From: a virus
Taxonomy: Duplodnaviria; Caudoviricetes
IMG/VR virus record: IMGVR_UViG_3300033067_001170
Span: 1 to 53,799 of that record
Length of the DNA: 53,799 nt
Direction: 5' to 3' (one strand)
Shown here: positions 1,573 to 48,762 of the stretch, one piece after another
Layout of the letters: each line of letters starts with the position of its first letter
How positions within the stretch are numbered: the first letter of the stretch is position 1
Translations under genes and position numbers: made by a program
Notes under the pieces: model-generated
What the model saw: the letters and a program-made list of their open reading frames with translations, nothing else
The model's database searches: none
Told to the model about the DNA's origin: nothing

Positions 1573-2406
1573 TTATTGTTGAGAAATACGTTGTTGGAAG
1601 TTCCAATTTTCTATAAATATAAAATCTCCTGGGTCTTTAGTTAAACCTATCCGTTCAAACGGAGAATTTTCATAAAAAGATTCTATTAAAATTGTTGGGA
1701 TTTCACACAGCAGACTTAAAGTTTTAACCCAAGTATCTACTGAATAAACTGTTGTTGCTTTACAAATTATACCAAATAATTTGTCTAAAGGTTCATCACA
1801 TAATATCTTTATGTTTCTTTCTGATAAATCATTATGGACAAATGTGATTCCATAAAAACTTTCTAACTCTTTACTAGTAGAGATTAGATATTTTACAGAT
1901 TCTTTATCTTCATCTATCAACTTTAATAATAGATCAGGTTTAATATACTTGTGTTTCCAATCAGTATCAGAACTCCCACCAGTAGGAGCAAACACAGAAT
2001 ATTTTTTATTTGTATTATTAATTGACCAATTTAATGTCCATACAGGAAGTGTTTCTATACCATACTTAGCAAACACGTCACAATTATTCCACTCAGAAAC
2101 ATATTGTAAATTGTCTGGTATATGTGCTTTGGAAAGAAATTTTTCATCATTTAGTATTTGAGAAAAATATAAATGAGAATTATCTATTGTAGATTCTAAA
2201 TAGTTCGGAAGAACTATAGATTTTTCTATCTTTGGAAATAGTTTAACTAATTCTTTTACAACATTTGGATTGTTTGCCCAAAATATCAATCCAAGTTTAT
2301 TATACTTATCATAATTACCATCGGACATTAACAACAAAAAATCACCTATACCCCCTATCCCAAATAAGAAAGGAAGTTTTAGTTTTTCACCAATATTTTT
2401 AAACAT
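1573..2406 (-). CDS. Glycosyltransferase family 9-like (heptosyltransferase-like, GT-B)
   Basis: GGIGDFLL at N-terminus; SVDTWVKTLSLLCEIPT resembles the GT9 DSG..H.A....P motif. Confidence 0.55.
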   Translation of the reverse strand: MFKNIGEKLKLPFLFGIGGIGDFLLLMSDGNYDKYNKLGLIFWANNPNVVKELVKLFPKIEKSIVLPNYLESTIDNSHLYFSQILNDEKFLSKAHIPDNLQYVSEWNNCDVFAKYGIETLPVWTLNWSINNTNKKYSVFAPTGGSSDTDWKHKYIKPDLLLKLIDEDKESVKYLISTSKELESFYGITFVHNDLSERNIKILCDEPLDKLFGIICKATTVYSVDTWVKTLSLLCEIPTILIESFYENSPFERIGLTKDPGDFIFIENWNFQQRISQQ

Positions 2407-2752
2407 ATTTACCTTTAAGTTTACAAATAACTTTAAATTCTAATATTTTATTATGTGGAGTACAATGCCCATATCTATTAAAATTATCCTTTAGAAAAAT
2501 AAATATTAAACTTCGTTTGAAATTTTCATATGCATAATCCCCATCAATATAAGTATTATAATTATCACTTCCCAAATACGTATCTTTGTAATACAAATCT
2601 CTAAAAAAATCGTATTGTCTATAACACTCATGCCTAAAATTTAAATTACCAATATCTAATTTAAACTCTTTACAAAACTTTATAATATTAGAATTATCAT
2701 TAAGAGTTATATGCCCACCATCATCACTATCTATTATACTATATTCGTTCAT
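2399..2752 (-). CDS. Hypothetical protein with C-terminal CKLK motif
   Basis: ORF in a tightly packed operon; ends KVICKLKGKYV. Confidence 0.7.
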   Translation of the reverse strand: MNEYSIIDSDDGGHITLNDNSNIIKFCKEFKLDIGNLNFRHECYRQYDFFRDLYYKDTYLGSDNYNTYIDGDYAYENFKRSLIFIFLKDNFNRYGHCTPHNKILEFKVICKLKGKYV

Positions 2753-2964
2753 CCCAATAAAAGTTTATCTTTACCCACATTAGAAGCATGTTCTAACTTA
2801 CCCAAAACCGCCTGCAGGTTTTCTATTGCTTCGTCTTCTGTTGTTCCTTCGGCTCTACCACCATGAACATTGATCTCCGCAATAATTATATTTTCTTTTC
2901 CTTTTTTTCTTAACATTATAGAATATGGTTTATTCTTATAAGTTACTAACTTCAATCCTGGCAA
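2749..2964 (-). CDS. HicB-like antitoxin domain protein (stand-alone)
   Basis: GGRAEGTTEDEAIENLQAVL matches the HicB G.T.EEA..N pattern. Confidence 0.55.
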   Translation of the reverse strand: MPGLKLVTYKNKPYSIMLRKKGKENIIIAEINVHGGRAEGTTEDEAIENLQAVLGKLEHASNVGKDKLLLG

Positions 2965-2965
2965 T

Positions 2966-3172
2966 TTATTCTTCTCCTGTTTTATATATTGGCATTATTT
3001 TACTACCTGTCCATCCTTCACCCTTCAATCTAACTGATGGTGCTTTAGTTGGAAACAGTTTAGTAATATTGTCTGAACCACAGAACGGACATTTCTGAGA
3101 TTCAGACGAAGATAAAACTAATTTCTCGTAACTTTTTTTACAAGACTTACACTCAAAATCAAATGTTGGCAT
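2966..3172 (-). CDS. FmdB-family zinc-ribbon protein
   Basis: MPTFDFECKSC...CPFCGS...LKGEGW. Confidence 0.85.
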   Translation of the reverse strand: MPTFDFECKSCKKSYEKLVLSSSESQKCPFCGSDNITKLFPTKAPSVRLKGEGWTGSKIMPIYKTGEE

Positions 3173-3528
3173 TATTCTATTGTAACTCCATCTTTAACCT
3201 GAGTAAAATATTGCTTCCAAAATTCATGTCTAGCATCTTTATCTAAAGACCATACTATATTGTTATTTGGATTCTTGAACATCTTTTTAATAGCTTCTTT
3301 CCTACCCTTGATCTTGGAATACTTGTCATTAGGGTGACAAAATGCTGTCTGTTCACATAACACTTTCTTTTCAGAAAATTTATCAAATATGTACATAACG
3401 GCAGTAGTTTTTCCACTTTCATCAACCACTATTTTTCTAGGATGTATCATTTTACTACTGTACTCCAAAACAGGTGGAGTGTGAATAAAGTTTAAATAAT
3501 AAACTTCATTGTCGATTACGAACTTCAT
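3172..3528 (-). CDS. Hypothetical phage protein
   Basis: AFCHPNDKYSKIKGRKEA, a motif type common in phage proteins; overlapping stop/start junction. Confidence 0.7.
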   Translation of the reverse strand: MKFVIDNEVYYLNFIHTPPVLEYSSKMIHPRKIVVDESGKTTAVMYIFDKFSEKKVLCEQTAFCHPNDKYSKIKGRKEAIKKMFKNPNNNIVWSLDKDARHEFWKQYFTQVKDGVTIE

Positions 3529-5682: not shown

Positions 5683-5844
5683 TTATATCTTTTTCAATTT
5701 GCAAACTATTTTAAAATTTTTTGTTTTTCTAATGAAAATATTTCTACCATTTTCATCTTTTTTATGAACACATAAGTATTTAACTGGCATAAAAGTAACA
5801 GCATCATATATTACTGGAAACAATGTATAAAATTCATTTTTCAT
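5683..5844 (-). CDS. Small hypothetical protein (53 aa, absent from ORF track) with C-terminal CKLK motif
   Basis: Manual translation MKNEFYTLFP...NFKIVCKLKKI*; stop directly abuts the next ATG. Confidence 0.65.
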   Translation of the reverse strand: MKNEFYTLFPVIYDAVTFMPVKYLCVHKKDENGRNIFIRKTKNFKIVCKLKKI

Positions 5845-5848
5845 ATTG

Positions 5849-5920
5849 TACTATTAACTGGACTCGAACCAATATCTTTAGTTTCGTAGACTAATGTGCT
5901 ATCCGTTGCACCATAATAGC
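5849..5920 (-). tRNA. tRNA-Arg(ACG)
   Basis: Acceptor GCTATTA/TAATAGT, anticodon arm TTAGT-CTACGAA-ACTAA, T loop TTCGAGT; no encoded CCA. Confidence 0.9.
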
Positions 5921-5924
5921 ATAG

Positions 5925-5996
5925 TACTGTCGGTAGGATTCGAACCCACATAAAACACCTTAGAAGGGTGTTGCACATCCATTATACCACGACAGC
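5925..5996 (-). tRNA. tRNA-Arg(TCT)
   Basis: Acceptor GCTGTCG/CGACAGT, anticodon arm ACACC-CTTCTAA-GGTGT, T loop TTCGAAT. Confidence 0.9.
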
Positions 5997-6410
5997 ATTT
6001 TCAACCATAAGATAATCTTTTGCCCATTTTATATTTTTGAATTGATTATTTTTAGGAGTCTCAATTCTCAATGAAATACTCTTTTCATGTTCCATAGGAT
6101 TTATATAATAACAAGTATCTGTATCTGGTGAATAAATACACATAATATCAATATCCGTTTTATTTATTCGTATAGAGTGATTTCCATACTTGTCACTCCA
6201 ATTACTTTTGAAATCTACTATTAAAATACCATGCTTAGATTTTCTATATTTAACAGATACTCGTAAAAATTTTCCATCCCTATATGCAACCAAATCAAAT
6301 GGTAAATGTTCTGAATTAGAGAAAAAAACATAATACCCCTTAGACACTAAATCTGCAAATGCTTTAGCAACTCCCAAATCACCCTTCTCTTTAGTATGGT
6401 GTGTTTTCAT
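5982..6410 (-). CDS. PD-(D/E)XK homing endonuclease (I-Ssp6803I-like, PDDEXK_5 type)
   Basis: TKEKGDLG...PFDLVA...RVSVKY...DIDIMCIYSP pattern; last codons overlap tRNA-Arg(TCT). Confidence 0.8.
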   Translation of the reverse strand: MKTHHTKEKGDLGVAKAFADLVSKGYYVFFSNSEHLPFDLVAYRDGKFLRVSVKYRKSKHGILIVDFKSNWSDKYGNHSIRINKTDIDIMCIYSPDTDTCYYINPMEHEKSISLRIETPKNNQFKNIKWAKDYLMVENAVVV

Positions 6411-6411
6411 A

Positions 6412-6705
6412 TTAGTCCACTCTTTGCAATCTTACTATACTTTGTATTGCTAACTCCATCTTCCGTCTTGCAGATTCGTTAGCACTATGTATTTTTATTT
6501 TAGGTGCTTTAAACATTTTATTAAAATATACTTCTTCTTCAATCCACAACAATACATCATATCCTGTTTTCTCATAACCCAAATCATGATCTAACGATAA
6601 TTCAGTTACTTTACCTGTTTTTAACAGGTCTAATGTTTCACAAACAGTTCTTGTTAGTGTCCATCCTATAGGTGATTCTCTCAAATCGTCAAGATATACT
6701 TTCAT
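6412..6705 (-). CDS. Cyclic-phosphate processing receiver-like domain protein
   Basis: YLDDLR..P.GW, SLDHDLG, TGYDVLLWIEE and IHSAN motifs. Confidence 0.8.
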   Translation of the reverse strand: MKVYLDDLRESPIGWTLTRTVCETLDLLKTGKVTELSLDHDLGYEKTGYDVLLWIEEEVYFNKMFKAPKIKIHSANESARRKMELAIQSIVRLQRVD

Positions 6706-6958
6706 TTGATTTTACTGGGTTTAATATGTGTTGCGTTAATTTTCTACAAATAATAGATACTATTTCTTTAGATGCTGATAGTGTTCCCACAACATCATCT
6801 AATTCTTGAATATAGTTAGGATTCCACCTAACTACCATAGATTTAATTGGTTCTAATGTTTCACTATTAAAAACCGTACCTTGATTGTCTACAATTTCTA
6901 TATTATTTTCTATACGTTCTATTATATCATTTTTAGTTTGTTCTAAATGTTCTTGCAT
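6689..6958 (-). CDS. Hypothetical protein resembling a short gp23 capsid segment
   Basis: RWNPNYIQELDDVVGTLSASKEIVSII pattern. Confidence 0.6.
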   Translation of the reverse strand: MQEHLEQTKNDIIERIENNIEIVDNQGTVFNSETLEPIKSMVVRWNPNYIQELDDVVGTLSASKEIVSIICRKLTQHILNPVKSNESIS

Positions 6959-7388
6959 TAATATTTCTCATATTATTTAATTGTTTATTTAATTTGTAAT
7001 CTAAATGCCATTTAACTCTCTTAATTTGATTATTTTTAGTAGGATTAACTCTTAACGTTCCCACACTTTCAGACACATCATCCACAGAAATCAAATATAT
7101 ATTGTTAGTACCACAGCAATATACCGCAAAATAGTCTATTTGTCCTTTATAAGATTTTCTATTTCCTCCTCTATGATAACTAGAACTTGATGTTGAAAAT
7201 TCAATACTTCCATCTTTCAGTATTCCTGTTTTAGATTGTATCTTATATAAAACATTATCAACATCTATAATAAAATCATATCGCTGATTATCACCAAAAG
7301 GAATAGATACTGAAACATCATTATTAATAAATTCTGATATTATAGATATCTCGGTTTTTTCTCCAACCATTTTACTATTTTGTTTCAT
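6933..7388 (-). CDS. PD-(D/E)XK homing endonuclease (I-Ssp6803I-like); start revised to 7388
   Basis: SKMVGEKTE...PFGDNQRYDFIID...KIQSKT...IDYFAVYC; the track's upstream extension is tRNA-Asn sequence. Confidence 0.85.
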   Translation of the reverse strand: MKQNSKMVGEKTEISIISEFINNDVSVSIPFGDNQRYDFIIDVDNVLYKIQSKTGILKDGSIEFSTSSSSYHRGGNRKSYKGQIDYFAVYCCGTNNIYLISVDDVSESVGTLRVNPTKNNQIKRVKWHLDYKLNKQLNNMRNINARTFRTN

Positions 7389-7390
7389 AG

Positions 7391-7462
7391 CTCCGTAAGC
7401 AGGACTCGAACCTGCAACTTCCACTTTAACAGAGTGGCACTCTACCATTGAGTTATTACGGA
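7391..7462 (-). tRNA. tRNA-Asn(GTT)
   Basis: Acceptor TCCGTAA/TTACGGA, G73, anticodon arm CCACT-CTGTTAA-AGTGG. Confidence 0.92.
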
Positions 7463-7504: not shown

Positions 7505-7836
7505 CCATTACCAATATAATCCATTACTGATTTTTCTTCGGGAACTATACACATAATATCGTCTGCGTAAATAGATATTAGAATAATATCAATATACGCT
7601 CCCGATGCTTTTGCTTTGTAAACTATCTGATCGCATCTGTCCTTTTCAAATACAACTCTATCCCCAACCTTTAATCCGTGTTTAACAGATTCTTCTTCGT
7701 TTATTATATACACTCTACCAAAAGCAGTATTATCTGATTTTTCTCTCAATCCTAAATCATATACAATTCCAGATACTGTACGTTTAACTGATTCATTCTC
7801 TAATTTCAAAAACACTCGTCCATTTATAGGTCTCAT
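7501..7836 (-). CDS. groES: GroES-like co-chaperonin
   Basis: MRPINGRVFLK...TVSGIV...LKVGDRVVF...DDIMCIV. Confidence 0.75.
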   Translation of the reverse strand: MRPINGRVFLKLENESVKRTVSGIVYDLGLREKSDNTAFGRVYIINEEESVKHGLKVGDRVVFEKDRCDQIVYKAKASGAYIDIILISIYADDIMCIVPEEKSVMDYIGNG

Positions 7837-9449
7837 AAAAACTTCTCCAAAGAACTTTTAGGTTTATTAAATTTTTTAGTATAGTGTTCCAATCTCTTTA
7901 CTCCTATTTTGTAGTAATCTTCACTAAGCTCACACCCATAAATATTATCAATTTTATATCCTGCTTTAACAAACCCTATAATTTCAGAAAATACACCACA
8001 AAAAGGAACATAAACTTTCTGATCGCATTCTTCTGGTAATTTAAATAAAGAAGAAATTCTATTTATAAGTTCTATAGGTTTTAATGTAGGATGATTATTT
8101 GGAGATGGTGAAGTAGTAAATCTCTCTTCAACATCTTTCATTTCTTTACTAGACTTATCACTCTTACCATTAAACAATCTTTCTTTCTTTTCTAAATCTT
8201 CTAACCCTTCATTTCTTTCTTTTGAAGATACTTTGGAATTATAAAATAATAAATCTAATTCATCTTCTTCATATTTAATTTGCTGTAATACTTTAGATGC
8301 TCCACCAACATCACCATACGCAAAAAATTCATTAGTATGAACTCCATCTCCATAGGTATTATTACTACCACCAAATCCTTGCTCAACTCCAGCATTAACA
8401 CTTCCACCTTTAACATTTCCGTGCTGTTTATCTAAAATAGCACAAGGACACTCAGGATTGGTATGTATTATCTTTTTATGAGCATCATTATAGTTACTAG
8501 GAGAATTTGGTTTAATATTATTTATAAACCCTTCAGCAATATATTCATTATCTTTATATTCAAATGGTTTTTTATCTACACCTTCTTCTATAACTTTATC
8601 ACACGTGCACTCTATAAACATTTGAGATGGATACCTACCATTTACATTTGTTTCTGTATTGTCTCCATATATCTTTTCATCGGTATATTGGTTGCTCTTA
8701 AATATTCTTTTAGCACTTCCTGTAGGATTCTTTTCGCCAACCACTTTAATTCTATTACCATTAATATCTAATATACTTGGAGATATTTCATTATCAGTTT
8801 CAGACTCTATAACATCATCCAATATAGATTTATTTTTAATAGGTTTTCTAAATACTAATACAGTTTCTAACACTTGTTTTAAAGGAGAAACTGAGTATTT
8901 GTATCCGTCATATTTTTTTGCCAAATCATGATTAGCTTCGGTAACAGGAACTTCACCCAACATAGAATTATCATTAAATCCATTATTAGGACTTAATGGT
9001 GAACTTATTTTATTTCTTCTCTTAGCATATGGGTCAGAAGATACTACATTTCTCTCCAAACCAAATCTTTTATCAATCCCTTTACTAACATCCGTTGCCT
9101 TTGGAAAATTGCTAATATAATACCAATATAAACTTTGCTGAACTTCAAAACCGTTCTTAACAGCATAATAAGTAAATGGTGCGAGTTGGCGGTCCATACC
9201 GAACATCAATAAATAACCACCATACTTTAACGTTCTAAACGATTCACTAAAGAATAAATCTAAATCAGTTTCATCTAACCCATTCCACTTATTCATAAAA
9301 TCAGATTTCTTCTTGATCTTATACTTGCCATCAGTATCTATATACCACACCGATGATAAATTATACGGTGGGTCACAAAATATAGTATTAAAAAACTTAT
9401 CTTCGTAACTCTTTATATCTATAAAAACATTATCGTTCTTTAAATTCAA
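7833..9449 (-). CDS. DNA methyltransferase (N6-A/N4-C, beta class) with large insertion
   Basis: DPPY catalytic motif, HPTLKP, VPFCG SAM-binding variant; TTG start after GAGG. Confidence 0.85.
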   Translation of the reverse strand: MNLKNDNVFIDIKSYEDKFFNTIFCDPPYNLSSVWYIDTDGKYKIKKKSDFMNKWNGLDETDLDLFFSESFRTLKYGGYLLMFGMDRQLAPFTYYAVKNGFEVQQSLYWYYISNFPKATDVSKGIDKRFGLERNVVSSDPYAKRRNKISSPLSPNNGFNDNSMLGEVPVTEANHDLAKKYDGYKYSVSPLKQVLETVLVFRKPIKNKSILDDVIESETDNEISPSILDINGNRIKVVGEKNPTGSAKRIFKSNQYTDEKIYGDNTETNVNGRYPSQMFIECTCDKVIEEGVDKKPFEYKDNEYIAEGFINNIKPNSPSNYNDAHKKIIHTNPECPCAILDKQHGNVKGGSVNAGVEQGFGGSNNTYGDGVHTNEFFAYGDVGGASKVLQQIKYEEDELDLLFYNSKVSSKERNEGLEDLEKKERLFNGKSDKSSKEMKDVEERFTTSPSPNNHPTLKPIELINRISSLFKLPEECDQKVYVPFCGVFSEIIGFVKAGYKIDNIYGCELSEDYYKIGVKRLEHYTKKFNKPKSSLEKFL

Positions 9450-13630: not shown

Positions 13631-14401
13631 TTAAACCTTTTTCTTTCTCTTAATTTTACACACTATGCCTATATTCAAATCTGCACAAATTTTATGTACA
13701 TCGTAATATTTATTATATGAATGAAACACATTTGTACAAACATTATTCATATTTGCAACCAACATATCTAATACATTTTTACCATATGTAAATCCTTTAG
13801 TGGTGTATTTATGTATCCTAGTAAGTGTTGATAGTGTTCCTTCTAAATTTATAATATTTATAGTTTTACGTTTCAAATCTTTAAAAAAATCTTTGTGAAA
13901 GAATAAATTCTTTCCATCTATACCTACAGCAGATACTGTAAAGTCGAATGAGTTTACTATATTCTTACAAGATGCTAAAGGTTTAAAAAATATAAATTGA
14001 GTTTTACACCCAAATACACTATAATTATCATAAGTAACAACATCCATATCCCTAATTCCATATTCACCATCATCCACATGAAAATGACCTATTCCTCTAT
14101 TTTCATCATACGAATATGCACCATACCCATTTCTTCTAGAATTAATCCATGATATAGCATCATCTATATCTTTTCGAGTCTCAAAAAATATATCTATATC
14201 TACTTCTTTATTTAAACCCATTCCCCTGAAATAATCTCTAAGAGTTCCACCAGCAATAACAAACTTAAATGGAAAATGTTTATAGAACTTTAAATATCTG
14301 TAAATTACCAATTTCCTTTTAAAGTATAGTGGTAATATTGGGCTCAAATAAGATAATCCAACTAATATAACTTCTTTAACTGAATACTTAAACATACTCA
14401 T
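13631..14401 (-). CDS. tRNA nucleotidyltransferase/poly(A) polymerase head-domain-like protein
   Basis: IAGGTLRD...DIDIFF...FDFTVSA class II NTase motifs; ends IVCKIKRKKKV. Confidence 0.7.
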   Translation of the reverse strand: MSMFKYSVKEVILVGLSYLSPILPLYFKRKLVIYRYLKFYKHFPFKFVIAGGTLRDYFRGMGLNKEVDIDIFFETRKDIDDAISWINSRRNGYGAYSYDENRGIGHFHVDDGEYGIRDMDVVTYDNYSVFGCKTQFIFFKPLASCKNIVNSFDFTVSAVGIDGKNLFFHKDFFKDLKRKTINIINLEGTLSTLTRIHKYTTKGFTYGKNVLDMLVANMNNVCTNVFHSYNKYYDVHKICADLNIGIVCKIKRKKKV

Positions 14402-14701: not shown

Positions 14702-14934
14702 GACAAATCTCCAAAATTACTCACAATCTTTTTAGATTTTTTGTGGACTAATCTTATACTATATCCCACTACTATTTGATAGTTAACTTTACCACTACTC
14801 ACCATCTCATACAACTCGAAAGGATTTAATTCTAACGCATACAACATACCACCTTTAGTATATTGTTTTCTGTGGAAAAGTTTTCCCTTATACGAATACG
14901 TTTCAGGATAACCATCAAAATAATATTTTCTCAT
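14698..14934 (-). CDS. Hypothetical protein
   Basis: TAATG coupling to upstream MTase. Confidence 0.65.
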   Translation of the reverse strand: MRKYYFDGYPETYSYKGKLFHRKQYTKGGMLYALELNPFELYEMVSSGKVNYQIVVGYSIRLVHKKSKKIVSNFGDLS

Positions 14935-15695
14935 TACATAAAGTTTTTTAAGGTATCAATAGATGATAATCGTTGTGTGGCAACAGCACGATAAGTTGGA
15001 GATATTTCTATACCCAAATACTGTCTATCTAATAATTTACAAGCAACCGCAGTTGTTCCTGAACCCATAAAAGGGTCCATAACAAGTTCATCTTTATACG
15101 TAAATAACTTTATAGCATTTGTAGGAATATCTAAACTAAAGTTTGCTTCGGTAAGTTTTTGTGTTTGAGGTTTATAATCCCAAACTCCCTGAACTAAATT
15201 AATAAACTCATTTTTATTATCCACAGAAAAGTCATGCTCACCCTGTTTATCTTTTTTCCATCTATCTTTATAATAAACAATAACACATTCTTTAGAATTA
15301 AAAAAATATGGTGCTGATGGTGATAACCAACTTCCCCACGCAGTATTCTTTTTTCTGTGTGGAACATCTTCATGCAAATCTATGTGACCAAAAAACTTAA
15401 ATCCAATTTTAAGCATTAATGTATGATAGTCTGCCATAATGAAAATCACATTACCGTTAGAATTTATAGTGTACGGAAGATTAATACAATATCTAGCATC
15501 AGGTTTTCCTATCCTATATAATTCTCTAAGATACTTCTCAGTAAAATCCCAATACTCATTCATAGGAATCAAATCATTCCAATCCGAATAAGGTATTCCC
15601 ACATTGTATGGTGGACTATAACAAAAAAAATCCACAAACTCGGAAGGAAGTTGTGGAGTAATAACATTTACATCACCCAATAGTATTTTATTCAT
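14934..15695 (-). CDS. DNA methyltransferase (N4-C/N6-A)
   Basis: SPPY and DPFMGSGTT motifs. Confidence 0.9.
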   Translation of the reverse strand: MNKILLGDVNVITPQLPSEFVDFFCYSPPYNVGIPYSDWNDLIPMNEYWDFTEKYLRELYRIGKPDARYCINLPYTINSNGNVIFIMADYHTLMLKIGFKFFGHIDLHEDVPHRKKNTAWGSWLSPSAPYFFNSKECVIVYYKDRWKKDKQGEHDFSVDNKNEFINLVQGVWDYKPQTQKLTEANFSLDIPTNAIKLFTYKDELVMDPFMGSGTTAVACKLLDRQYLGIEISPTYRAVATQRLSSIDTLKNFM

Positions 15696-32232: not shown

Positions 32233-32239
32233 TTAAAAT

Positions 32240-32312
32240 GCTAGTGTAACTCAATTGGTAGAGTAGCTGATTTGTAATCAGCCTGTTGGAGGTTCGAGTC
32301 CTCTCATTAGCT
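32240..32312 (+). tRNA. tRNA-Thr(TGT)
   Basis: GCTAGTG/CATTAGC acceptor; GCTGA-TTTGTAA-TCAGC. Confidence 0.92.
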
Positions 32313-32345
32313 CAAAATATTTTATCAAGTAAATTATAGGATTTT

Positions 32346-33871: not shown

Positions 33872-33892
33872 AATAGTTTTTAAATTAATATT

Positions 33893-34246: not shown

Positions 34247-34258
34247 AAAGATACCACA

Positions 34259-35210: not shown

Positions 35211-36124
35211 CAAATCTATATGTACTTTACGGTTGTCCTAGAAGTGGCAAGTCTACTTGGGCAAAGAAAATGAGAGATGAAAATCCTAATAAAATAGTTA
35301 GGGTAAATAAAGATGATCTCAGAGCAATGCTACACGCACCAGGACACAATAATGGTCAGGAAAAACTAACAGTATCCATCAGAGATAAGATAATTGAAAA
35401 ATCTCTTAGAGATGGTAAAGATGTTATTGTTGATGATACTAATTTTCCTTTCGGTGGACAACACTATAAAAGATGTTGTGAAATAGCACAATTAGTTGGA
35501 GATGTTACTGTTATTGAAAAATTCTTCGATGCTAATCTGCCTGATTTGTTGAGAAGAAATAAAGAATCATTGGATGGTAAACCTGTTCCTGAAGATGTAA
35601 TCTATAATATGTTTAATAAACATGTTAAAGGAAAACAGTACACATTTACTAGTGTATATTTTCCACCGTTAGAAAAGGTTAAGTACAATCCAGATTTACC
35701 AGAATGTGTTATTTTCGATATTGATGGCACACTTGCTCATATGCAAGGTAGAAGTGCTTATGATTGGAAACGAGTTGGTGAAGATGCTGTAGATTTTAAT
35801 GTAAGAAGAATATATGATTATCTATGTGTAAGTCAATTTGATAATCAAGGTCCAGATGAAATAATAATATTTTCTGGAAGAGATGGTTCTTGTTTAGTAG
35901 AAACTATACAATGGTTAACTGATAATAAAATAGTTTACGATAAAATATTTTTAAGACCTGAAGGTAATATGGAAAAAGATTCTATAATTAAGAAAAGAAT
36001 GTATGAAGAAAACATCAAAGGCAAGTATAATGTTGTTGCGGTTTTTGATGACAGACAACAGGTGGTAGATATGTGGAGAGCTATGGGTATTACTGTGTGT
36101 CAAGTTGCCAACGGAGATTTCTAA
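35207..36124 (+). CDS. pseT: Polynucleotide 5'-kinase/3'-phosphatase (T4 Pnkp)
   Basis: GCPRSGKST P-loop, DDLR, HAD DIDGTLA, SGR, FDDR. Confidence 0.92.
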   Translation: MTNLYVLYGCPRSGKSTWAKKMRDENPNKIVRVNKDDLRAMLHAPGHNNGQEKLTVSIRDKIIEKSLRDGKDVIVDDTNFPFGGQHYKRCCEIAQLVGDVTVIEKFFDANLPDLLRRNKESLDGKPVPEDVIYNMFNKHVKGKQYTFTSVYFPPLEKVKYNPDLPECVIFDIDGTLAHMQGRSAYDWKRVGEDAVDFNVRRIYDYLCVSQFDNQGPDEIIIFSGRDGSCLVETIQWLTDNKIVYDKIFLRPEGNMEKDSIIKKRMYEENIKGKYNVVAVFDDRQQVVDMWRAMGITVCQVANGDF

Positions 36125-36558: not shown

Positions 36559-36785
36559 TTTCAGCAATATCTGAAGAAGTCGAAAAGAATTTTAACGGAT
36601 GTTTTAAAATAATTACTGAAGATAATGTGTATAATGGACCCGTATTTTTAGATTCTGTTGTAAGAGAAGATGATGGTTATTATATTTACAATCAAATATA
36701 TAGTCCTAGTTTACAAGATGTAGATTTTAGAAAAGAAAAAATATTGCGTTGGTATAGAATAATATTTAAATTGGTTAAAAAATGA
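36555..36785 (+). CDS. Hypothetical protein
   Basis: ATGA overlaps. Confidence 0.65.
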   Translation: MISAISEEVEKNFNGCFKIITEDNVYNGPVFLDSVVREDDGYYIYNQIYSPSLQDVDFRKEKILRWYRIIFKLVKK

Positions 36786-37156
36786 GTTGGACTTGCAAAT
36801 TGTGTGGCAATAAATCATTTGATGATAAAAATCCTGTATCTTGTTCGGGGAATGGCAATGCTCTTGGATGTGATGGTGGAAATTGGGAATTGGATGTGTC
36901 TAATAATAAAGTGCCATTAAAAGTAACTGAATTAGATATGACAACCGCAAAACGAAAGTATATCGATCTTGAGCCCATAATAGAAGTTGGTAAATGTCCT
37001 AAATGTAATAGTGATAAAATTTTTAAGCATTATAATGATACTATTCACAATGTTGAAATACATTGTGGTGATTGTAAATATGTACTTAGGGGTATATTTT
37101 TTGAACTTGTAGTAGAAAGATGGAATAAACTTAAAAGAAAGACTATTAAAAAATAA
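36782..37156 (+). CDS. Zinc-ribbon protein with Lar-like C-terminal half
   Basis: CKLC, CPKC...CGDC...ERWN pattern. Confidence 0.55.
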   Translation: MSWTCKLCGNKSFDDKNPVSCSGNGNALGCDGGNWELDVSNNKVPLKVTELDMTTAKRKYIDLEPIIEVGKCPKCNSDKIFKHYNDTIHNVEIHCGDCKYVLRGIFFELVVERWNKLKRKTIKK

Positions 37157-38794: not shown

Positions 38795-39453
38795 TGAAAC
38801 TAAAGTACCTTTCGGTAGACGTAGAAACAACAGGATTAGATACAAAAAACGATCAATTAGTGGAAGTAGCCGCTATTCTTGATGATTTTTCAAATCTTAA
38901 ACCTGTAGAAAAATTGCCAAGATTCCATTGTTATATTAAACGTGATAATTTTAGTGGTAATCCTTACGCACTAAGTCTTCACGCAGATAAATTCAAAAAA
39001 ATATCTGAAGGTGGTGATGATGTTTTAGATGCTGGTGATTTTGTAATGGCATTTAAAAATTGGATAATAGATAATAATGGATATTATGATAAATCTATGT
39101 TTGCTGTTGATGTTGACTTAATTGAAGAACTACCTATGAGTGCAACTCTACAAAAATATAGATATGATATAGTTAAAGTTGTTGGTGCTGGTAAAAATTT
39201 CGGTTCATTTGATCGAGCATTTTTAGAAAATAGTAGTTGGGGATTTAAAGATCATATAAAATTTGCTCACAGATGTATTGATGTTGGTGATATGTATTTG
39301 TCTGTAGATGATGTAGTTCCACCATCATTAGATGAATGTGCTGAACGAGCTGGTCTTGATGAAAGATGTAGAGTTAATCATAATGCTATGAATGAAGCAG
39401 AAATGGTAGTTAAATTAATCAGAATAAATTTATTGGGAAAATTCACAGTATGA
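38794..39453 (+). CDS. DEDDh 3'-5' exonuclease
   Basis: VDVETTGLD, KNFGSFD, HNAMNEA. Confidence 0.85.
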   Translation: MKLKYLSVDVETTGLDTKNDQLVEVAAILDDFSNLKPVEKLPRFHCYIKRDNFSGNPYALSLHADKFKKISEGGDDVLDAGDFVMAFKNWIIDNNGYYDKSMFAVDVDLIEELPMSATLQKYRYDIVKVVGAGKNFGSFDRAFLENSSWGFKDHIKFAHRCIDVGDMYLSVDDVVPPSLDECAERAGLDERCRVNHNAMNEAEMVVKLIRINLLGKFTV

Positions 39454-40883
39454 TAGATTATAAAGAATTATTACAAACTGATAGTGCTCTTATACTAAGT
39501 AAAATATTAAATAATGTTATACATGGGAATAATTTAGAAGTATTAAAATTATTCCCATCAGATTTTGCAGATACTTGTATTACTTCTCCACCGTACTACG
39601 GTTTAAGAAATTATGAAACTAAAAATGTAATATGGGATATCACAAATTGTGATACCAAGTGTGAACATAATTGGGAATACTATAAAACAAGAGGTATTTC
39701 TGGTGGCACTAATACTGATAAATTAAAAACAAAAGGTCAAGATAATTACCAAATAGTTAATCCTACAGAAAATGCATTTTGTACTAAGTGTGGAGCTTGG
39801 TGGGGAGAATTAGGACAAGAACCTACTGTAGAGTTGTTTGTAAAACATTTGGCAGATATATTTGATGAAGTTAAAAGAGTTCTTAAACCTACAGGTTCAT
39901 TTTTTCTAAACATTAGTGATTCGTATATGGGTGGTGGAAAACCTAAACAAAAGAATATTAGAAATAAATCTTTAATGGGTGTTCCTGAAAAAATAATGAT
40001 AGAATTAATCAACAGAGGTTGGATACTTAGAAATAAAGTAATATGGCAAAAACCTAACCCTGTTCCAGAGTCTATGGTAGATAGATTTACAAGAAGTTGG
40101 GAATATATATACTTCTTTACAAAAAATGAAGATTATTATTTTGAACAGCAATTAGAAAAAGCATTGTATGAAGACAACAGACCATCAGGAATGGAAAGAA
40201 ATGGTGAGCAATATCGAAGAAAAGTTAACAGGACTTTAACTCAAAAAGAAAAAACAATAACTAAAAATGTAGCGGCTTCATCATTTGTAGGACATAGTGG
40301 CGGGTTTGATGAAAATGGAAATTTTATGGGAATTCCTGGTCTTAGAAATGTTAGAGATATATGGAATATAAAAACTCAACCATTTGTATCTGCAAGATAT
40401 GGAGATTTTGACTCTGATCATTTTGCTTCATATCCAGAAGAACTTGTTAAAGTTCCAATTAGTTCTACTACTCCTAAACAGATATGTTCTAACTGTGGTA
40501 ATTATAGATTAAAAGGATATACTAAAATAGGGGAATCATCATATGAAAATATGATAGGTGTAGACACATCTAAGTTTCGTAGTGAGCAGGGAATTAAGCA
40601 GAATATGAGAGCAGATAGGGAATGTTATGAGAGACCTGTAATAGAAACTTATACTGAGTGTGGTTGTGATAATCCAACATACACCGAGTCGGGTATAGTT
40701 ATTGACCCGTTTCACGGAACAGGAACAACATCCATAGAAGCATTAAGACAGGGAGTTAACTATATAGGTATAGAACTAAACAAACAATATGTTGATATAT
40801 CCGAAGCACGAATAGATACATTCAAAAAAACAGAAGAAATGATTAAAAAAAGAATGAGTAATTCTTTAGGAAAATTTTTATGA
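39450..40883 (+). CDS. DNA methyltransferase (N4-C/N6-A) with Cys-rich inserts
   Basis: TSPPYYGLR, HFASYP, DPFHGTGTT. Confidence 0.9.
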   Translation: MIDYKELLQTDSALILSKILNNVIHGNNLEVLKLFPSDFADTCITSPPYYGLRNYETKNVIWDITNCDTKCEHNWEYYKTRGISGGTNTDKLKTKGQDNYQIVNPTENAFCTKCGAWWGELGQEPTVELFVKHLADIFDEVKRVLKPTGSFFLNISDSYMGGGKPKQKNIRNKSLMGVPEKIMIELINRGWILRNKVIWQKPNPVPESMVDRFTRSWEYIYFFTKNEDYYFEQQLEKALYEDNRPSGMERNGEQYRRKVNRTLTQKEKTITKNVAASSFVGHSGGFDENGNFMGIPGLRNVRDIWNIKTQPFVSARYGDFDSDHFASYPEELVKVPISSTTPKQICSNCGNYRLKGYTKIGESSYENMIGVDTSKFRSEQGIKQNMRADRECYERPVIETYTECGCDNPTYTESGIVIDPFHGTGTTSIEALRQGVNYIGIELNKQYVDISEARIDTFKKTEEMIKKRMSNSLGKFL

Positions 40884-41179
40884 TTAAAGTTGTAACTGTT
40901 GAAAAAATTTATAATGGACATATCTCACTTAGGGATTACATTGTAGATACCGCAATTAAAAATAATGATAGTATATTGGTTAAGTGTAAAGGTGAAGAGA
41001 AGTTATTAACACCAAAAGAACTATCAGAAAATAAAATAATATTAACGGATAAAACATTGCGTAGCAAATTTAAACATTCTAATACCTATAAATTGTATGA
41101 TTATGAGTGGAAACCCAAAAAACAAGTAGAACATAATTCAACATTTGAATTTACCAGATCGTTAGATAAGTTTTTCTAA
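40880..41179 (+). CDS. Hypothetical protein with C-terminal SLDKFF
   Basis: Coupled ORF. Confidence 0.7.
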   Translation: MIKVVTVEKIYNGHISLRDYIVDTAIKNNDSILVKCKGEEKLLTPKELSENKIILTDKTLRSKFKHSNTYKLYDYEWKPKKQVEHNSTFEFTRSLDKFF

Positions 41180-42754: not shown

Positions 42755-44650
42755 ATGCCACAAAAATTATTTTTAATAGATAATAAATTTTTCAATAAAA
42801 TACCAGATACTGAAATGTTAATAGATAGTTTAATTACATCTATAGGAAACATAGAATCATCCGAGATACTTAAAAATTCAGAAATGGTATATCTAAACAA
42901 TTCAAATGTTGTTTGGGATGAAAAGTATAAGAGTAAGAATATAAGGATAATTCAAACACTATCTGATATAAATTTATATGAATACGAATCTGTTATTTAT
43001 ATTAATTCTCCGTTTTTCAGTATAGCAAATGTGTTGTCTGATATATTATCAAACGAGCACTATCAAAAAAATAGAATAGTATCTCAGGAAGTATACAATT
43101 TAAATCCTATAACATCCGCAACTACCGAAAGATTCTTATTTTCTAAAACTAAACCTATGCAATTGGGTAATGTTGCATCATTATCTATTTTCACATTTAA
43201 GTTGGAAAAAGACCCAGATGAAATAAAATTTGAATCTCAGGAACAATTAGTTAAATTTTTACACCGTAAAAGTCCTCAAGCTGTGTATGAATTTTCTAAT
43301 AACTTAGGAATATCCGCATTTCAATTTTTTGAAAAAGAATTAGATTATATTAATTTTTGTTTAGGTGAAAGAACATTTACTGATGGTTCTAATGGAATAT
43401 ATGCAGTATACTTTCCAGATGAATATAAAAATATAGATGATATTGTTGATATAGTTATGGATATGCAAAATAAAAATCCTAAAATGTTTATAGATTTACG
43501 AACAGGATTAGATATTTCCAGTACATTTAGTGAAGAAATTGTAGAAGTTGATGGTGAATTTCAAGTTCAAAATAACTTTAAAGGAGATAATACTAGACTT
43601 ATAACATCTAATTCTAAATTGCTACATTATGATTTTAACACTATAAATGGAGTATTAGATTTATCAGATAAACATTTCAAGCATATATTATTTGGTGGTC
43701 CAAAATATATGAAAGTGTATAACTCTGAATATAAATTTTTGTATCAAATATCTAAGGAAGATATATTATCAGCAAAAGTTATTGATGTTAAAAGAACTAT
43801 GGGCATGGGGGATGCCCTATTAACATTACCTATAATCAGAGAAATTAAAAAAATAAATCCTGATGTTAAAATTATATTCCATTCATTGTATGATTTCTCT
43901 AAATATTTAATAGACAAATCTATGATAGATTCCTTCGTAAAATTAGACAGTAGGGGAATATTTGCAGATTTAAATACCACATCAGATATAGTGTTAGATT
44001 TTGATCTAGCATATGAAAATCAAACTTTTGGTGGTAGATTTTTCGATTACTATCTCAATTTCTTTTCACTTGATACTTTTACAGAAATAGATACTAATCC
44101 TATATTAACTTATGGTGTTGATCAGGAACAAGAAAAAACTTGTGCTATAGTTGGTGAAGGTTCTGGTTGGGCAAGTAAAGAACCCAATATAGATTTAATT
44201 GAACGACTTGCATATACTATGAAAGAAAAGGGATATAAAGTATATGAGCCAGGAATAAATAGAATAACTAATTATGCGGATGAAACTAATCCTAATAATG
44301 ATTTAGATAAAGTATTTAAGATGGTTAAATTATCTAATTGTTATATAGGTACTGATTCAGGTGTTTCTCATATTGCTAATTTAATGGGTAAACCTTCATT
44401 TATTATTGGTGGTTCTGCAGACCCAAATAAAACACAATTTAATGTAAATATTATCTATCCTTTCGGTAGAACAGATTTATTATGCTATGGTTGTAGACAC
44501 TTTTCTAAAGGATTTAGAACATTAGAAAATGGAACTAACACATTCGTATCAGGTTGCCACAACGTAAATCAATTTCAATGCATGAAAGACTTGGATGTTA
44601 ATATGGCAATAGAAGATTTAGATAATTTTTTGATCAAATTCGACCTTTAA
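42755..44650 (+). CDS. Glycosyltransferase family 9 domain protein
   Basis: MGMGDALLTLPIIREIKKINPD and YIGTDSGVSHIANLMGKP. Confidence 0.8.
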   Translation: MPQKLFLIDNKFFNKIPDTEMLIDSLITSIGNIESSEILKNSEMVYLNNSNVVWDEKYKSKNIRIIQTLSDINLYEYESVIYINSPFFSIANVLSDILSNEHYQKNRIVSQEVYNLNPITSATTERFLFSKTKPMQLGNVASLSIFTFKLEKDPDEIKFESQEQLVKFLHRKSPQAVYEFSNNLGISAFQFFEKELDYINFCLGERTFTDGSNGIYAVYFPDEYKNIDDIVDIVMDMQNKNPKMFIDLRTGLDISSTFSEEIVEVDGEFQVQNNFKGDNTRLITSNSKLLHYDFNTINGVLDLSDKHFKHILFGGPKYMKVYNSEYKFLYQISKEDILSAKVIDVKRTMGMGDALLTLPIIREIKKINPDVKIIFHSLYDFSKYLIDKSMIDSFVKLDSRGIFADLNTTSDIVLDFDLAYENQTFGGRFFDYYLNFFSLDTFTEIDTNPILTYGVDQEQEKTCAIVGEGSGWASKEPNIDLIERLAYTMKEKGYKVYEPGINRITNYADETNPNNDLDKVFKMVKLSNCYIGTDSGVSHIANLMGKPSFIIGGSADPNKTQFNVNIIYPFGRTDLLCYGCRHFSKGFRTLENGTNTFVSGCHNVNQFQCMKDLDVNMAIEDLDNFLIKFDL

Positions 44651-45830: not shown

Positions 45831-47048
45831 ATGGCTAAAGATAAAAAAACAAAAATTTTGTCTGGAGATGATCTATATAATGAGTATCTGCAACAAAATA
45901 TGGAAATTTATAATGAGTTATTAAAAGAAGGAATAGACATAACTGAGGTATCTGATGTTGATATTAATAAAGTTGATAGTTTTATTTCTACAGGTTCTTT
46001 TTTATTAGATGCAAGCATAACTAATTCTTCCGTTGGTGCTGATGGGAAATTAAAGTTAGGTATAGCTGGTGGTAAGATAGCATATTTTTCTGGTGAGGAA
46101 TCAACAGGTAAATCCATAATGGCGGCTCATATATTAAAAAATGCCCAATCTCAAGGAGCTATTTGTGCATATATAGATGGTGAACAAGCAGTCAATAAAG
46201 AATTATTTAAAAATATTGGTGTTAGTTTTGATAAAAATAAATTGATATATTCTGAATGTAACGTTGTTGAGAAAAATTTTCAACTAATAGAAAAAATTGT
46301 TAGTACTATAGCATCATCTAAAATTCCAGAGCAATTAGGTCTTATAGTTTGGGATTCTATTGCATCAACAACAACAATAGATGAATTAGAATCTGAATAT
46401 GGTGATAAGAGTTATGGACATTTAGCAAAACAAATGTCTTTAGGATTTAGAAAAGTAATACGAATGATAAATAAACATAATGTTGCCATTGTGTTTACTA
46501 ATCAATTGCGTGAAAATCTTAAAATGAAAAATATGTATGATGACCCATTTATAGAACCTGGTGGTAAAGCAGTACATTTTTATTCTAGTCTATCGTTAAG
46601 ATTGCTTAAACCTACGAAGTCTGATAGAATTCTAAACTCTAAAGGTCAACAAATAGGTACTGCTGTTAAGATACGATTTAAGAAAAATAGATATGGTCCA
46701 CCACAAAACGATCTTCATTTTAACTTATACTATGGTAGAGGAATTGATGATGATGCTAATTTATATTATTGGTTAAAGGATAAAAAATTCTTAACATCTA
46801 GAGTTCCTAACAGCACAATAAAACTACCTGTGCAGGGATTTGAAGATTATAAGTTTGCAACTAGAGATTGGAAAAAACTTTTATCTGATAGTGATGGTGA
46901 AGTTAGAAATAGACTCAGACAATTTGCTGTAGATGAAATTCGTATAAATCTTAATGATGATAACTTTTATGATTCTGATGAAAATGATGGCGGGTTAGCA
47001 GAAGCAGAAAAAGAGTTAACGGATGAAATCACGAAAACTAGTAAGTAA
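45831..47048 (+). CDS. uvsX: RecA/UvsX recombinase
   Basis: ISTGSFLLD, GEESTGKS, WDSIA, FTNQLR, PGGKA..FYSS, KNRYGPP. Confidence 0.92.
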   Translation: MAKDKKTKILSGDDLYNEYLQQNMEIYNELLKEGIDITEVSDVDINKVDSFISTGSFLLDASITNSSVGADGKLKLGIAGGKIAYFSGEESTGKSIMAAHILKNAQSQGAICAYIDGEQAVNKELFKNIGVSFDKNKLIYSECNVVEKNFQLIEKIVSTIASSKIPEQLGLIVWDSIASTTTIDELESEYGDKSYGHLAKQMSLGFRKVIRMINKHNVAIVFTNQLRENLKMKNMYDDPFIEPGGKAVHFYSSLSLRLLKPTKSDRILNSKGQQIGTAVKIRFKKNRYGPPQNDLHFNLYYGRGIDDDANLYYWLKDKKFLTSRVPNSTIKLPVQGFEDYKFATRDWKKLLSDSDGEVRNRLRQFAVDEIRINLNDDNFYDSDENDGGLAEAEKELTDEITKTSK

Positions 47049-47286
47049 GTGGTCTGCTGTTACAGAAGAATTATTACATGATATAGAATATGAAAGTGTG
47101 TGTAGTAAAATTGCTGAACAAATTCAAAAAGAAATAGATGAAGAAATTTTAAGTACTTTATTTGATATTGCGAGAGTTACCATAAATGGCAAAAACTATA
47201 TATTAAATTCGTACAGAGGCATGGTAGATAATTCTGATAATTTAGAATATATAAATATAATATGTGAATTGAATAAAAAATTATGA
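47023..47286 (+). CDS. Small protein resembling a gp23 major capsid segment
   Basis: KSRKLVSKWS...IAEQIQKEIDEEILSTL. Confidence 0.6.
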   Translation: MKSRKLVSKWSAVTEELLHDIEYESVCSKIAEQIQKEIDEEILSTLFDIARVTINGKNYILNSYRGMVDNSDNLEYINIICELNKKL

Positions 47287-48050
47287 TACATAAATTACTA
47301 AAGGGCGACGTTTTTAATGAACTTGAAAAGTTGCCCGATAGTATTTTTGATCTGATAATTTGTGATGGTCCTTACGATGCTGTAAATTGTTCAAGTAAGT
47401 GGGATAGTGTAAAGTTTATTCATGAGTATAACTTAAAACTTATACATTTATTCTCCACCAAATTAAAACAAGGTGGTTCTTTATATATGTTTGGTAAGCA
47501 TAATGCTATTGATAATATAAATTATAGTAATTATCTGCAACTAAACAATAGAATAATATGGGTTATATCTTCAAGACTTAGACAAAGCAAATACAGATAT
47601 ACTAACAATTATGATGTTATATTCTTTTTTTCTAAAGGAGCACCTAAAACATTTAACTTAGATAGTATACGAGTTCCACAACAAACTAAATATATATCAT
47701 CTGTAGAATCATCTCCATCGGTTAAAGATGGTAAATTTAATAAAACTAAATATAATCCTGATGGTAAAAATCCAGGAGATGTTTGGTCAGATATAAAAGC
47801 ATTAACATATAGAAGTAATGAGTTATTGTCTAAAGAATTACACACAATCCAAAAACCAGAAAAACTTATAGAACGACTTATGTTAGCCAGTTCAAATGTT
47901 GGTGATGTTGTATTAGATGCATTTTCTGGTACAGGAACTACATCTGCCGTTGCAAAAAAATTAAAAAGACATTCAGTAGCTATTGAAAATGATGATAAAA
48001 TGTATTATATTATACAAGATAGGCTGAAAAATTATGACAACTCTAATTAA
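47283..48050 (+). CDS. DNA methyltransferase (N6-A/N4-C)
   Basis: DGPY (DPPY variant), HTIQKP, DAFSGTGTT. Confidence 0.85.
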   Translation: MIHKLLKGDVFNELEKLPDSIFDLIICDGPYDAVNCSSKWDSVKFIHEYNLKLIHLFSTKLKQGGSLYMFGKHNAIDNINYSNYLQLNNRIIWVISSRLRQSKYRYTNNYDVIFFFSKGAPKTFNLDSIRVPQQTKYISSVESSPSVKDGKFNKTKYNPDGKNPGDVWSDIKALTYRSNELLSKELHTIQKPEKLIERLMLASSNVGDVVLDAFSGTGTTSAVAKKLKRHSVAIENDDKMYYIIQDRLKNYDNSN

Positions 48051-48336
48051 CATTAAACAAAATAAAAAATATGATATTTATATAGGAAGACCTTCTAAGT
48101 GGGGTAATCCATACAGTCATAAAATAGGAACAAGAGCAAAGTTTTTAGTTTCAAGTGTTGACGAAGCAGTTGAGAAGTATGAAGAATATGCTAGAAATAA
48201 TCCTGAGATAATGAATTCTTTAGATGAATTAGATGGTAAGATTTTAGGGTGTTGGTGTTGTCCAAGTAAATGTCATGGTGATATTTTAATAAAACTTATA
48301 AATGAAAAAAATAACACTCTTAAAAAATTCCAATAA
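48034..48336 (+). CDS. DUF4326-family protein
   Basis: YDIYIGRPSKWGNPY...L.GK.LGCWC.P..CHGD. Confidence 0.88.
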   Translation: MTTLINIKQNKKYDIYIGRPSKWGNPYSHKIGTRAKFLVSSVDEAVEKYEEYARNNPEIMNSLDELDGKILGCWCCPSKCHGDILIKLINEKNNTLKKFQ

Positions 48337-48601
48337 GACTGAAGATAAATTACTTTATGTTATGTTAAAATATAATATAAGTAATAGTACATCTAGTAGT
48401 ATTCATAGATTTGTTATGGATACAGGGTGGGTATCCTTTGGATATAGAAAAAAGATAGAACAAGATGATGTGTTAAATTATCCGTATACTTGGATACAAT
48501 ATGCATTACAAAGATTGAGAAAAAGAAAAATAGTTCAATGTTATGGACAACGATGGTACATAAATAAAGAAATATTCACATGTAAATTGAAAAAAATATG
48601 A
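48302..48601 (+). CDS. Hypothetical protein with C-terminal CKLK motif
   Basis: Ends IFTCKLKKI. Confidence 0.65.
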   Translation: MKKITLLKNSNKTEDKLLYVMLKYNISNSTSSSIHRFVMDTGWVSFGYRKKIEQDDVLNYPYTWIQYALQRLRKRKIVQCYGQRWYINKEIFTCKLKKI

Positions 48602-48762
48602 CAGAAGATGAAAAAATACAAATTATTGATGAAATAGGTTCTATAACATCTAATTCTATAATAATAAATATGTGTGAGTTTAAAGAAATAATACCAGTAA
48701 AATATAAACATAGACCGTTAGGAAAAGTAGCATGCAAACTCAAGAAGAAAAATATAAAATAG
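48598..48762 (+). CDS. Small hypothetical protein (54 aa, absent from ORF track) with C-terminal CKLK motif
   Basis: MTEDEKIQIIDE...PLGKVACKLKKKNIK*; ATGA overlap with previous gene. Confidence 0.6.
   Translation: MTEDEKIQIIDEIGSITSNSIIINMCEFKEIIPVKYKHRPLGKVACKLKKKNIK

Follow-up and report, generated by a model that had tools for sequence, protein, structure and literature searches.

A shared C-terminal Cys-Lys tail on eight proteins encoded by an uncultured viral contig

Eight proteins with a common C-terminal tail

We analyzed a stretch of 53,799 base pairs (bp) from a tailed virus (Caudoviricetes; IMG/VR record IMGVR_UViG_3300033067_001170), and the window refers here to the whole of this stretch. 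Eight of its open reading frames (ORFs), encoding proteins of 53 to 256 residues, end in a tail built around the core C-K-[LI]-K. These tails can be summarized approximately as [KR]-x-[VI]-x-C-K-[LI]-K-[KR]-K, after which there are 0–4 (in one case 6) variable residues. A preliminary description of this DNA had grouped nine C-termini under this motif, and the nine ORFs all translated as had been written. Eight of the tails form a set far above chance expectation, whereas the ninth, IICELNKKL, is a doubtful member as judged by its residues. It lies at 47257–47283, ends an ORF of 87 residues (47023–47286, plus strand) and lacks both core lysines. The protein has only weak, sub-threshold family matches and is the sole member of its own cluster.

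Tagged genes 1 to 4 are located on the minus strand. Gene 1 (2399–2752) encodes an orphan of 117 residues with no PHROG or Pfam match and the tail VICKLKGKYV (2402–2431), and it overlaps the next gene, whose start is at 2406. Gene 2 (5683–5844; 53 residues, tail IVCKLKKI at 5686–5709) is directly downstream of two genes for arginine transfer RNA (tRNA-Arg); its product is also an orphan, with no PHROG or Pfam family match, and is alone in its own 90% cluster. Gene 3 (13631–14401) encodes a nucleotidyltransferase-like protein of 256 residues, in which phrog_4400 and phrog_1614 cover only residues 34–221 and the tail IVCKIKRKKKV is encoded at 13634–13666. Gene 4 (21299–21556; 85 residues, tail VTCKLKRKN at 21302–21328) belongs to a widespread, unnamed family of small proteins and is located two genes upstream of the DNA polymerase gene.

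Tagged genes 5 to 8 are on the plus strand. Gene 5 (33893–34246; an orphan of 117 residues, tail VSCKLKIKSKL at 34211–34243) is located between the genes for RNA ligase 1 and an RNA-ligase-like protein. Gene 6 (34932–35210; an orphan of 92 residues, tail KCCKIKRKL at 35181–35207) adjoins the polynucleotide kinase gene on its upstream side. The last two form a pair: gene 7 (48302–48601) encodes 99 residues with the tail FTCKLKKI at 48575–48598, and gene 8 (48598–48762) an orphan of 54 residues with the tail VACKLKKKNIK at 48727–48759. Tagged genes thus occur singly or in pairs between core genes. Their neighbors are an SbcD-like region (with the tagged gene upstream), the two tRNA-Arg genes, the clamp-loader region and the polymerase and, on the right side, the RNA-ligase and kinase genes (with tagged genes between them) and a ribonuclease H (RNase H)-like exonuclease (with tagged genes before it). 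When the doubtful variant is included, PHROG families could be assigned to two of the nine tail-bearing proteins (one of them weakly), and none had a Pfam match above threshold.

The motif was almost confined to these gene ends. A six-frame scan of the window found nine occurrences of CK[LI]K, eight of which were the C-termini of the tagged ORFs, with 5–8 residues between the Cys and the stop in each of them. The remaining one, at position 43464 on the plus strand, was in a non-coding frame, four codons past a stop. No protein of the contig carried an internal CK[LI]K, and a looser scan with C[KR][LIVMF][KR] did not yield any additional real ORF end. For statistics, we used a set of 75 proteins (16,546 residues), from which mechanically called ORFs overlapping tRNA genes, probably not genes, were excluded (5841–5978 and 30164–30433 on the minus strand, 30492–30839 on the plus strand). 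Based on the composition of this proteome, 0.33 CK[LI]K would be expected in the proteins as a whole and 0.013 within their 12 C-terminal residues, whereas eight were observed, every one of them in tails (Poisson P = 2.6e-20). In 20,000 shuffles of each 12-residue tail that kept its composition, the mean was 0.28 occurrences and the maximum was four. Lys is more abundant at the ends of these proteins (16.7% of the last 12 residues versus 10.1% overall). The choice of Cys was specific to the C-terminus: it occupied the first position of xK[LI]K in 8 of 15 C-terminal cases and in none of 32 internal ones. At the DNA level, the pattern TGYAAAHTNAAR had nine matches versus 2.59 expected, a number reached in none of 100 shuffles. 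The shared tail is therefore confirmed as real and far above chance, and an AT-rich background, an alternative named in the preliminary description, does not account for it. The proposed enrichment at C-termini over internal positions also held within this contig.

Apart from their tails, the proteins had been described as unrelated, and this description stands at the sequence level: all-against-all BLASTP after removal of the last 12 residues gave a best E value of 0.055, in a database of ten sequences.

We then asked what kind of constraint the aligned sites reflect. When the eight sites were aligned at the Cys codon, the T and G of this codon, the AAA, the middle T of the Leu/Ile codon and the following AA were invariant. 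Third codon positions varied and information was concentrated at codon positions 1 and 2. The Leu/Ile codon appeared as CTT, TTG, ATT, TTA, ATA or CTC, such that its first base was also free, and the V, I or F found at position -2 from Cys was specified by four codons (GTT, ATA, GTA and TTC). All eight gene-end copies were in the same reading frame. Shifted into either of the remaining frames, TGTAAA or TTGA would frequently provide the upstream gene with a stop, harmlessly, but no gene ends in this way. The distance from the Cys codon to its own stop was 18–27 nucleotides (nt), versus 17–42 nt to the next ATG, where the next start after gene 8 is ambiguous. Neither six-frame nor DNA-pattern scans detected the motif in the intergenic leaders of the contig. 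Codon-periodic variation, the single frame and the tighter spacing to the tag's own stop therefore support a constraint that acts on the protein. This agrees with the protein-level constraint proposed in the preliminary description, further attested by retention of the core down to 54% identity (see below), and does not agree with a fixed distance to the next start codon.

Conservation in relatives and searches elsewhere

Relatives of the tagged proteins were found among proteins from public assemblies. The core, as C-K-[LI]-[KR], was kept in 12 of 12 relatives that represented five protein families and were 54–98% identical to the window proteins. For example, three relatives of the gene 3 product (95%, 88% and 71% identity) ended in IVCKIKRKKKV, IVCKIKRKTKV and IVCKLKHKA. 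Four relatives of the gene 7 product (96%, 80%, 71% and 72%) kept FTCKL[KR]K, with the ends KKI, KKYDRR, RKI and KKLC. Both relatives of the gene 1 product, P0089 (78%) and P0005 (about 95%), kept KVICKLKGK, while two other cysteines, C43 and C97, were replaced. The cluster members of the gene 8 product, P0013 (93%) and P0014 (98%), kept [IV]ACKLKKKNIK; the sole other Cys of this protein, C26, is Tyr in P0013. The most distant relative, P0020 (54% identical to the gene 4 product), ended in KRVVCKLKKKEVGKIL, keeping KRVxCKLK+K. Residues past the core differed among relatives in both number and kind, with 12 residues after the Cys in P0020.

Two of the tagged proteins belong to families with many other members. 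When 1.84 billion representatives were searched in full with HMMER, 69 others belonged to the gene 4 family, of which only P0020 had the tag (68 of 69 did not). In an alignment of 26 sequences, the tag of the gene 4 product started directly after the last conserved block of the family, and the other 24 members had at most a few unrelated residues, or none, past this block. For gene 3, a metagenome scan found 36 loci encoding distant nucleotidyltransferase homologs (21–31% identity), none of which had a C-terminal CK[LI]K. In 17 of these loci, the C-terminus of the matching ORF had a different tail (mostly ...GGWD), and all 17 lacked the tag. The preliminary description had suggested comparing homologs for presence or absence of the tail, and in this comparison the closer relatives had it and the distant homologs did not. 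As judged from these sequences, the tail is shown to be a portable add-on to two otherwise widespread domains. Tagless distant homologs and the kept tag in close ones indicate that the peptide was gained in this phage lineage in two independent domain families and has been retained since.

Metagenome contigs from four runs revealed a freshwater relative, about 95% identical, in which genes were present or absent as units. In run X1, one contig has gene 5, and another joins position 33871 to 34258, omitting exactly this gene. The gene at 36782–37156, which has a Cys-less look-alike tail (NKLKRKTIKK), was omitted in runs X1 and X3 (window positions 36774–37146). Given such gene-exact presence and absence in a close relative, the tagged genes act as accessory cassettes.

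Outside these relatives, the tag was not observed as a recurrent feature. Pelagibacter phage HTVC008M, a complete, AT-rich, T4-like genome (147,284 bp, 33% G+C), had four six-frame occurrences of CK[LI]K, all in non-coding frames. A pattern scan of IMG/VR for DNA able to encode CKLKKI followed by a stop returned at least 116 loci (1.03 Mb). Among the loci listed, CKLKKI ended an ORF of at least 35 codons in two and a C-terminal CK[LI]K was present in four ORFs of this length; none of these loci had two tags and none was related to the window. The pattern KRxxCK[LI]K+K matched nine stretches of IMG/VR, all in non-coding frames. Overall, no comparable tag was found in 152 control loci. We also searched for relatives together with their flanking DNA, and none was detected by megablast of 20 kb against GenBank phages, with the polymerase against IMG/VR, with a 631-residue protein against metagenome contigs, or with three alignments against genome contigs and IMG/VR. 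The tail of the gene 4 product gave no usable match in the ESM Atlas. Based on these controls, we conclude that the tag is specific to a rare lineage. No published account of such a phage tag was found in the main texts of the papers listed.

Genomic context and a second class of C-terminal peptides

The contig has a G+C content of 29%, ranging from 25 to 31% along its length. Genes are directed leftward up to ~28 kb and rightward beyond, and Shine-Dalgarno-like purine runs precede their starts. Pfam and PHROG scans identified a replication set (family-B DNA polymerase, sliding clamp, clamp-loader subunits, a DnaB-like helicase and a primase/helicase-like protein) as well as a recombination and repair set (a UvsX-like recombinase, a gp32-like single-strand-binding protein and an SbcD-like nuclease). 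Ribonucleotide reductase, RNA ligase 1, a second RNA-ligase-like protein, polynucleotide kinase, MazG-like enzymes, four DNA-methyltransferase-like proteins and two homing endonucleases are also encoded, and these scans recognized no structural genes among the contig proteins. The polymerase was most similar to that of Microcystis phage Mel-JY01 (34.8% identity), and its identity to cyanophage and pelagiphage T4-like polymerases was ~29%. Judged by these identities, the contig derives from an uncultured phage that is T4-like but divergent, and it covers the part of the genome with the replication and RNA-repair genes.

In an RNA-repair operon (32756–36124, plus strand), two tagged orphans are interspersed among the genes for RNA ligase 1, the RNA-ligase-like protein and polynucleotide kinase. 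The tagged nucleotidyltransferase-like protein (13631–14401) might act on RNA ends too. The 14 tRNA genes, one of which is for tRNA-Cys, are found at 5848–7462 and 28112–32313. A gene for transfer-messenger RNA (tmRNA) is located at 29619–30005 on the plus strand (Rfam RF00023, 70.6 bits); according to ARAGORN, it specifies an unusual tag peptide that ends in ...SEVVFA. The HNH and GIY-YIG homing-endonuclease-like genes (28293–28799 and 53005–53604, plus strand) are beside the tRNA block and the right contig end, respectively. Four paralogous DNA-methyltransferase-like genes, all matching phrog_67, are at 7833–9449 and 14934–15695 on the minus strand and at 39450–40883 and 47283–48050 on the plus strand. 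The sliding-clamp homolog (16870–17778, minus strand) has 302 residues, of which the PHROG clamp profile covers 89–297 only, suggesting either an N-terminal extension of ~88 residues or a mis-set start. With a net charge of -17, the clamp is among the most acidic contig proteins, and no other known hub of the window is as acidic.

A second class of C-terminal peptides, L-x-[KN]-F-[FLM], was detected in the same contig, with seven occurrences at C-termini and four internal ones. Besides the polymerase (18149–20758, minus strand; NMLSNFF), it is carried by the RNase H-like exonuclease, by two methyltransferases and by three further proteins, of which two lack an annotation. The genes other than that of the polymerase are at 7833–9449 and 14934–15695 on the minus strand and at 39450–40883, 40880–41179, 42755–44650 and 48732–49718 on the plus strand, and further examples of the class read SLEKFL, SLGKFL, TLKNFM, SLDKFF and KLSNFM. 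In T4-type phages, the polymerase gp43, gp33 and gp55 carry C-terminal peptides that bind the sliding clamp; these are hydrophobic or aromatic and are not known to contain Cys. The L-x-[KN]-F-[FLM] class resembles the tails of this kind in T4 and RB69 and, by this analogy, looks like a clamp-binding tail. If so, two of the four DNA-methyltransferase-like proteins would ride on the clamp.

Like the T4 clamp-binding peptides, the Cys-Lys tag is a short C-terminal peptide shared by unrelated phage proteins, and the two agree in both phage type and gene region. However, it has no aromatic pair. Since the polymerase of this contig itself has a tail of the L-x-[KN]-F-[FLM] class, the Cys-Lys tag is a separate signal. 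The presence of a second peptide class on the same contig also makes docking by C-terminal peptides look like a habit of this phage, in which the Cys-Lys tag would serve a different reader. A complex prediction for the phage sliding clamp and the tagged protein 8 had a score of 0.00 and was returned as 'no answer', which counts neither for nor against binding.

Possible functions of the tail

The reading we favor, which we hold to be about evenly poised between right and wrong, is that the tail is a lineage-specific, portable C-terminal docking motif of the short linear type, which is read by one partner and recruits proteins to it. It is short, occurs on unrelated proteins, is conserved while its flanks vary, and has been gained and lost apart from the domain that carries it, as docking motifs are. 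The fixed residue order, the invariant Cys, the variable residues past the core and the independent gain on unrelated domains argue for this type of motif. In such a scheme, at least eight unrelated accessory proteins, whose genes lie between those for core replication and RNA-repair functions, would have acquired the tail. The peptide might lie extended or as a beta strand, in which case alternating residues would form a small hydrophobic face (V/I, Cys and L/I) opposite a face of lysines. One common reader protein, of the phage or the host, would then bind the peptide, and a changing set of accessory proteins would in this way share one location or one mode of control. We infer the strand conformation, the single reader and the purpose of recruitment from the pattern of conserved residues and its distribution.

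It should be noted that several observations weigh against this docking function. In an AlphaFold2 model of the gene 7 product (five sequences, mean predicted local distance difference test (pLDDT) 65, i.e., low confidence), residues 89–96 are in the last strand of a beta-hairpin, and the core of this protein may thus be part of its own hairpin rather than a free peptide. Structural support comes from this one model, as the model of the nucleotidyltransferase was unusable (mean pLDDT 39), and a fold search with the gene 7 model had no match at E ≤ 0.001. Among the larger unannotated proteins of the window, Pfam and PHROG did not reveal a candidate reader with a peptide-binding, protease or thiol-enzyme assignment. 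Most relatives are 67–98% identical, and strongly informative conservation is limited to P0020 (54%) and P0003 (71%). In addition, the ribosome-binding region of the next gene is purine-rich and overlaps the Lys/Arg run that follows the core. The basic residues there are partly explained by this A/G-rich region, such that part of the basic character of the tails is a by-product. Finally, all counts refer to one contig of 53.8 kb that is part of a phage genome, and the tagged proteins and their classes are those of this part.

Alternatively, the tail could be a degron that marks early accessory proteins for timed destruction or remodeling by a host AAA+ protease, which we consider rather unlikely. 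Recognition might be direct, or might involve an adaptor on the Cys-Lys core and an unfoldase on the basic, aliphatic end. In phage Mu transposase, MuA, ClpX recognizes a basic C-terminal signal (RRKKAI, as given in PMC8138137), and the tails are similar to it in that basic residues are clustered close to the end of a phage protein, usually before a final aliphatic residue; V, I or L is last after two or more basic residues in seven of the nine tails. The tagged genes are accessory and located in the early/replication region, and the phage has its own tmRNA, so C-terminal tagging and proteolysis may matter in this system. However, in the MuA-type signal the recognized element is the extreme C-terminus, with basic residues and the last 1–2 residues, whereas the conserved Cys-Lys-[Leu/Ile]-Lys begins 5–8 residues from the end and the core ends 2–5 residues before it (9 in P0020). 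The terminal residues, in turn, vary in identity and in number (5–8 after the Cys, 12 in P0020), and the last residues of the eight tags are V, I, V, N, L, L, I and K. Cys is also absent from the ClpX C-terminal signals in the table of PMC8138137, and neither class of such signals is known to contain it.

The tail may likewise be compared with the ssrA tag and its adaptor SspB; the sequence of ssrA is given in PMC8138137, and its bipartite reading is mentioned in a preprint (bioRxiv 10.1101/2024.12.16.628724). Here too, an adaptor might recognize the internal part of the tail and a different machine its end, and a tmRNA is encoded by the phage. However, ssrA is added co-translationally by tmRNA, whereas the Cys-Lys tail is encoded in the genome gene by gene and is unrelated in sequence.

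We regard as distinctly unlikely that the tail is an address label, in which its lysines would anchor the proteins on phage DNA or RNA (e.g., tRNA under repair) or direct them into the capsid for co-injection. Consistent with this idea, the tails have a net charge of +3 to +6 on protein bodies with isoelectric points from 4.5 (acidic) to 9.9 (basic), and three tagged genes are found at RNA-repair functions (two among the RNA ligase and polynucleotide kinase genes, and the nucleotidyltransferase). Plain electrostatics, however, requires neither an invariant Cys nor a fixed C-K-[LI]-K order combined with hydrophobicity at position -2. In addition, Cys-less lysine tails such as that of the gene at 36782–37156 are present, and plain basic tails are therefore a background. 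The capsid targeting sequence of T4 is N-terminal and cleaved at L/I-x-E, and encapsulin cargo-loading peptides have other sequences. Both are, like the Cys-Lys tag, short peptides shared by unrelated proteins, which they sort to HK97-fold shells. The Cys-Lys tag differs from the T4 targeting sequence in being C-terminal, and I-C-E occurs in the doubtful variant only.

A further idea, to which we give a small chance, centers on the invariant Cys. Activated by the flanking lysines, it could be linked covalently or via a metal (a disulfide, a thioester or a shared zinc site) to one phage hub. A swappable accessory set would thereby be tethered, for example for packing into the head and co-injection, or for joint switch-off by redox or proteolysis. 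Several more familiar roles for such a Cys were considered and rejected. In a zinc finger, the partner Cys or His should be kept, and it is not conserved in relatives. A prenylated CaaX box requires Cys at the fourth position from the C-terminus, whereas the tag has 5–8 residues after it. The bacterial lipobox follows an N-terminal signal peptide and reads [LVI][ASTVI][GAS]C; the tag is located at the C-terminus of proteins of 53–256 residues and its position -1 is I, V, V, T, S, C, T or A. A fusion to the next gene by frameshifting or readthrough was also rejected, as no consistent slippery site was found.

It is highly improbable that TGYAAA-NTN-AAR serves as an RNA or DNA element for the downstream gene, such as a translation enhancer, a repressor site or part of a promoter, with the peptide as a by-product. 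Each tag is indeed closely followed by the next gene in a tight arrangement, the Cys codon precedes ATG by 17–23 nt in six of eight cases, and the purine stretch after the core overlaps Shine-Dalgarno-like sequences. However, the bases that vary coincide exactly with the wobble positions plus base 1 of the Leu/Ile codon, one frame is used throughout although other frames would merely end the upstream gene, the spacing to the next ATG extends to 33 and 42 nt, intergenic leaders lack the motif, and extra coding sequence was added in two families to carry it. Chance, or a hidden common descent of whole proteins that diverged everywhere except at the end, has a negligible probability: although these are small, fast-evolving orphans, seven of nine with no PHROG match, the Poisson P value, the absence of similarity once tails are removed, the range of protein sizes and the placement of two tagged proteins in two different families with otherwise tagless members all argue against it.

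Docking and sorting peptides are well mapped in eukaryotes and poorly in phages, and most small early phage genes are orphans. Shared terminal peptides for docking or sorting are already known as a kind; based on the sequences compared here, a tag with an invariant Cys on at least eight accessory proteins would be new. A shared, selected tail would tie small orphans, together with two proteins of known families, to one reader, and a single partner would thus provide a context for the whole set. With a host hub or protease as the reader, the tail would point to a mechanism of takeover or timing; with a phage structure as the reader, it would reveal a cargo system, and a covalent or metal-linked hub would represent a new kind of cargo-tagging in tailed phages. 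A portable tag of 8–11 residues with a single essential Cys might also be a tool for recruiting proteins in infected cells. More generally, scans for C-terminal motifs can group the 'dark matter' genes of phages where homology fails.

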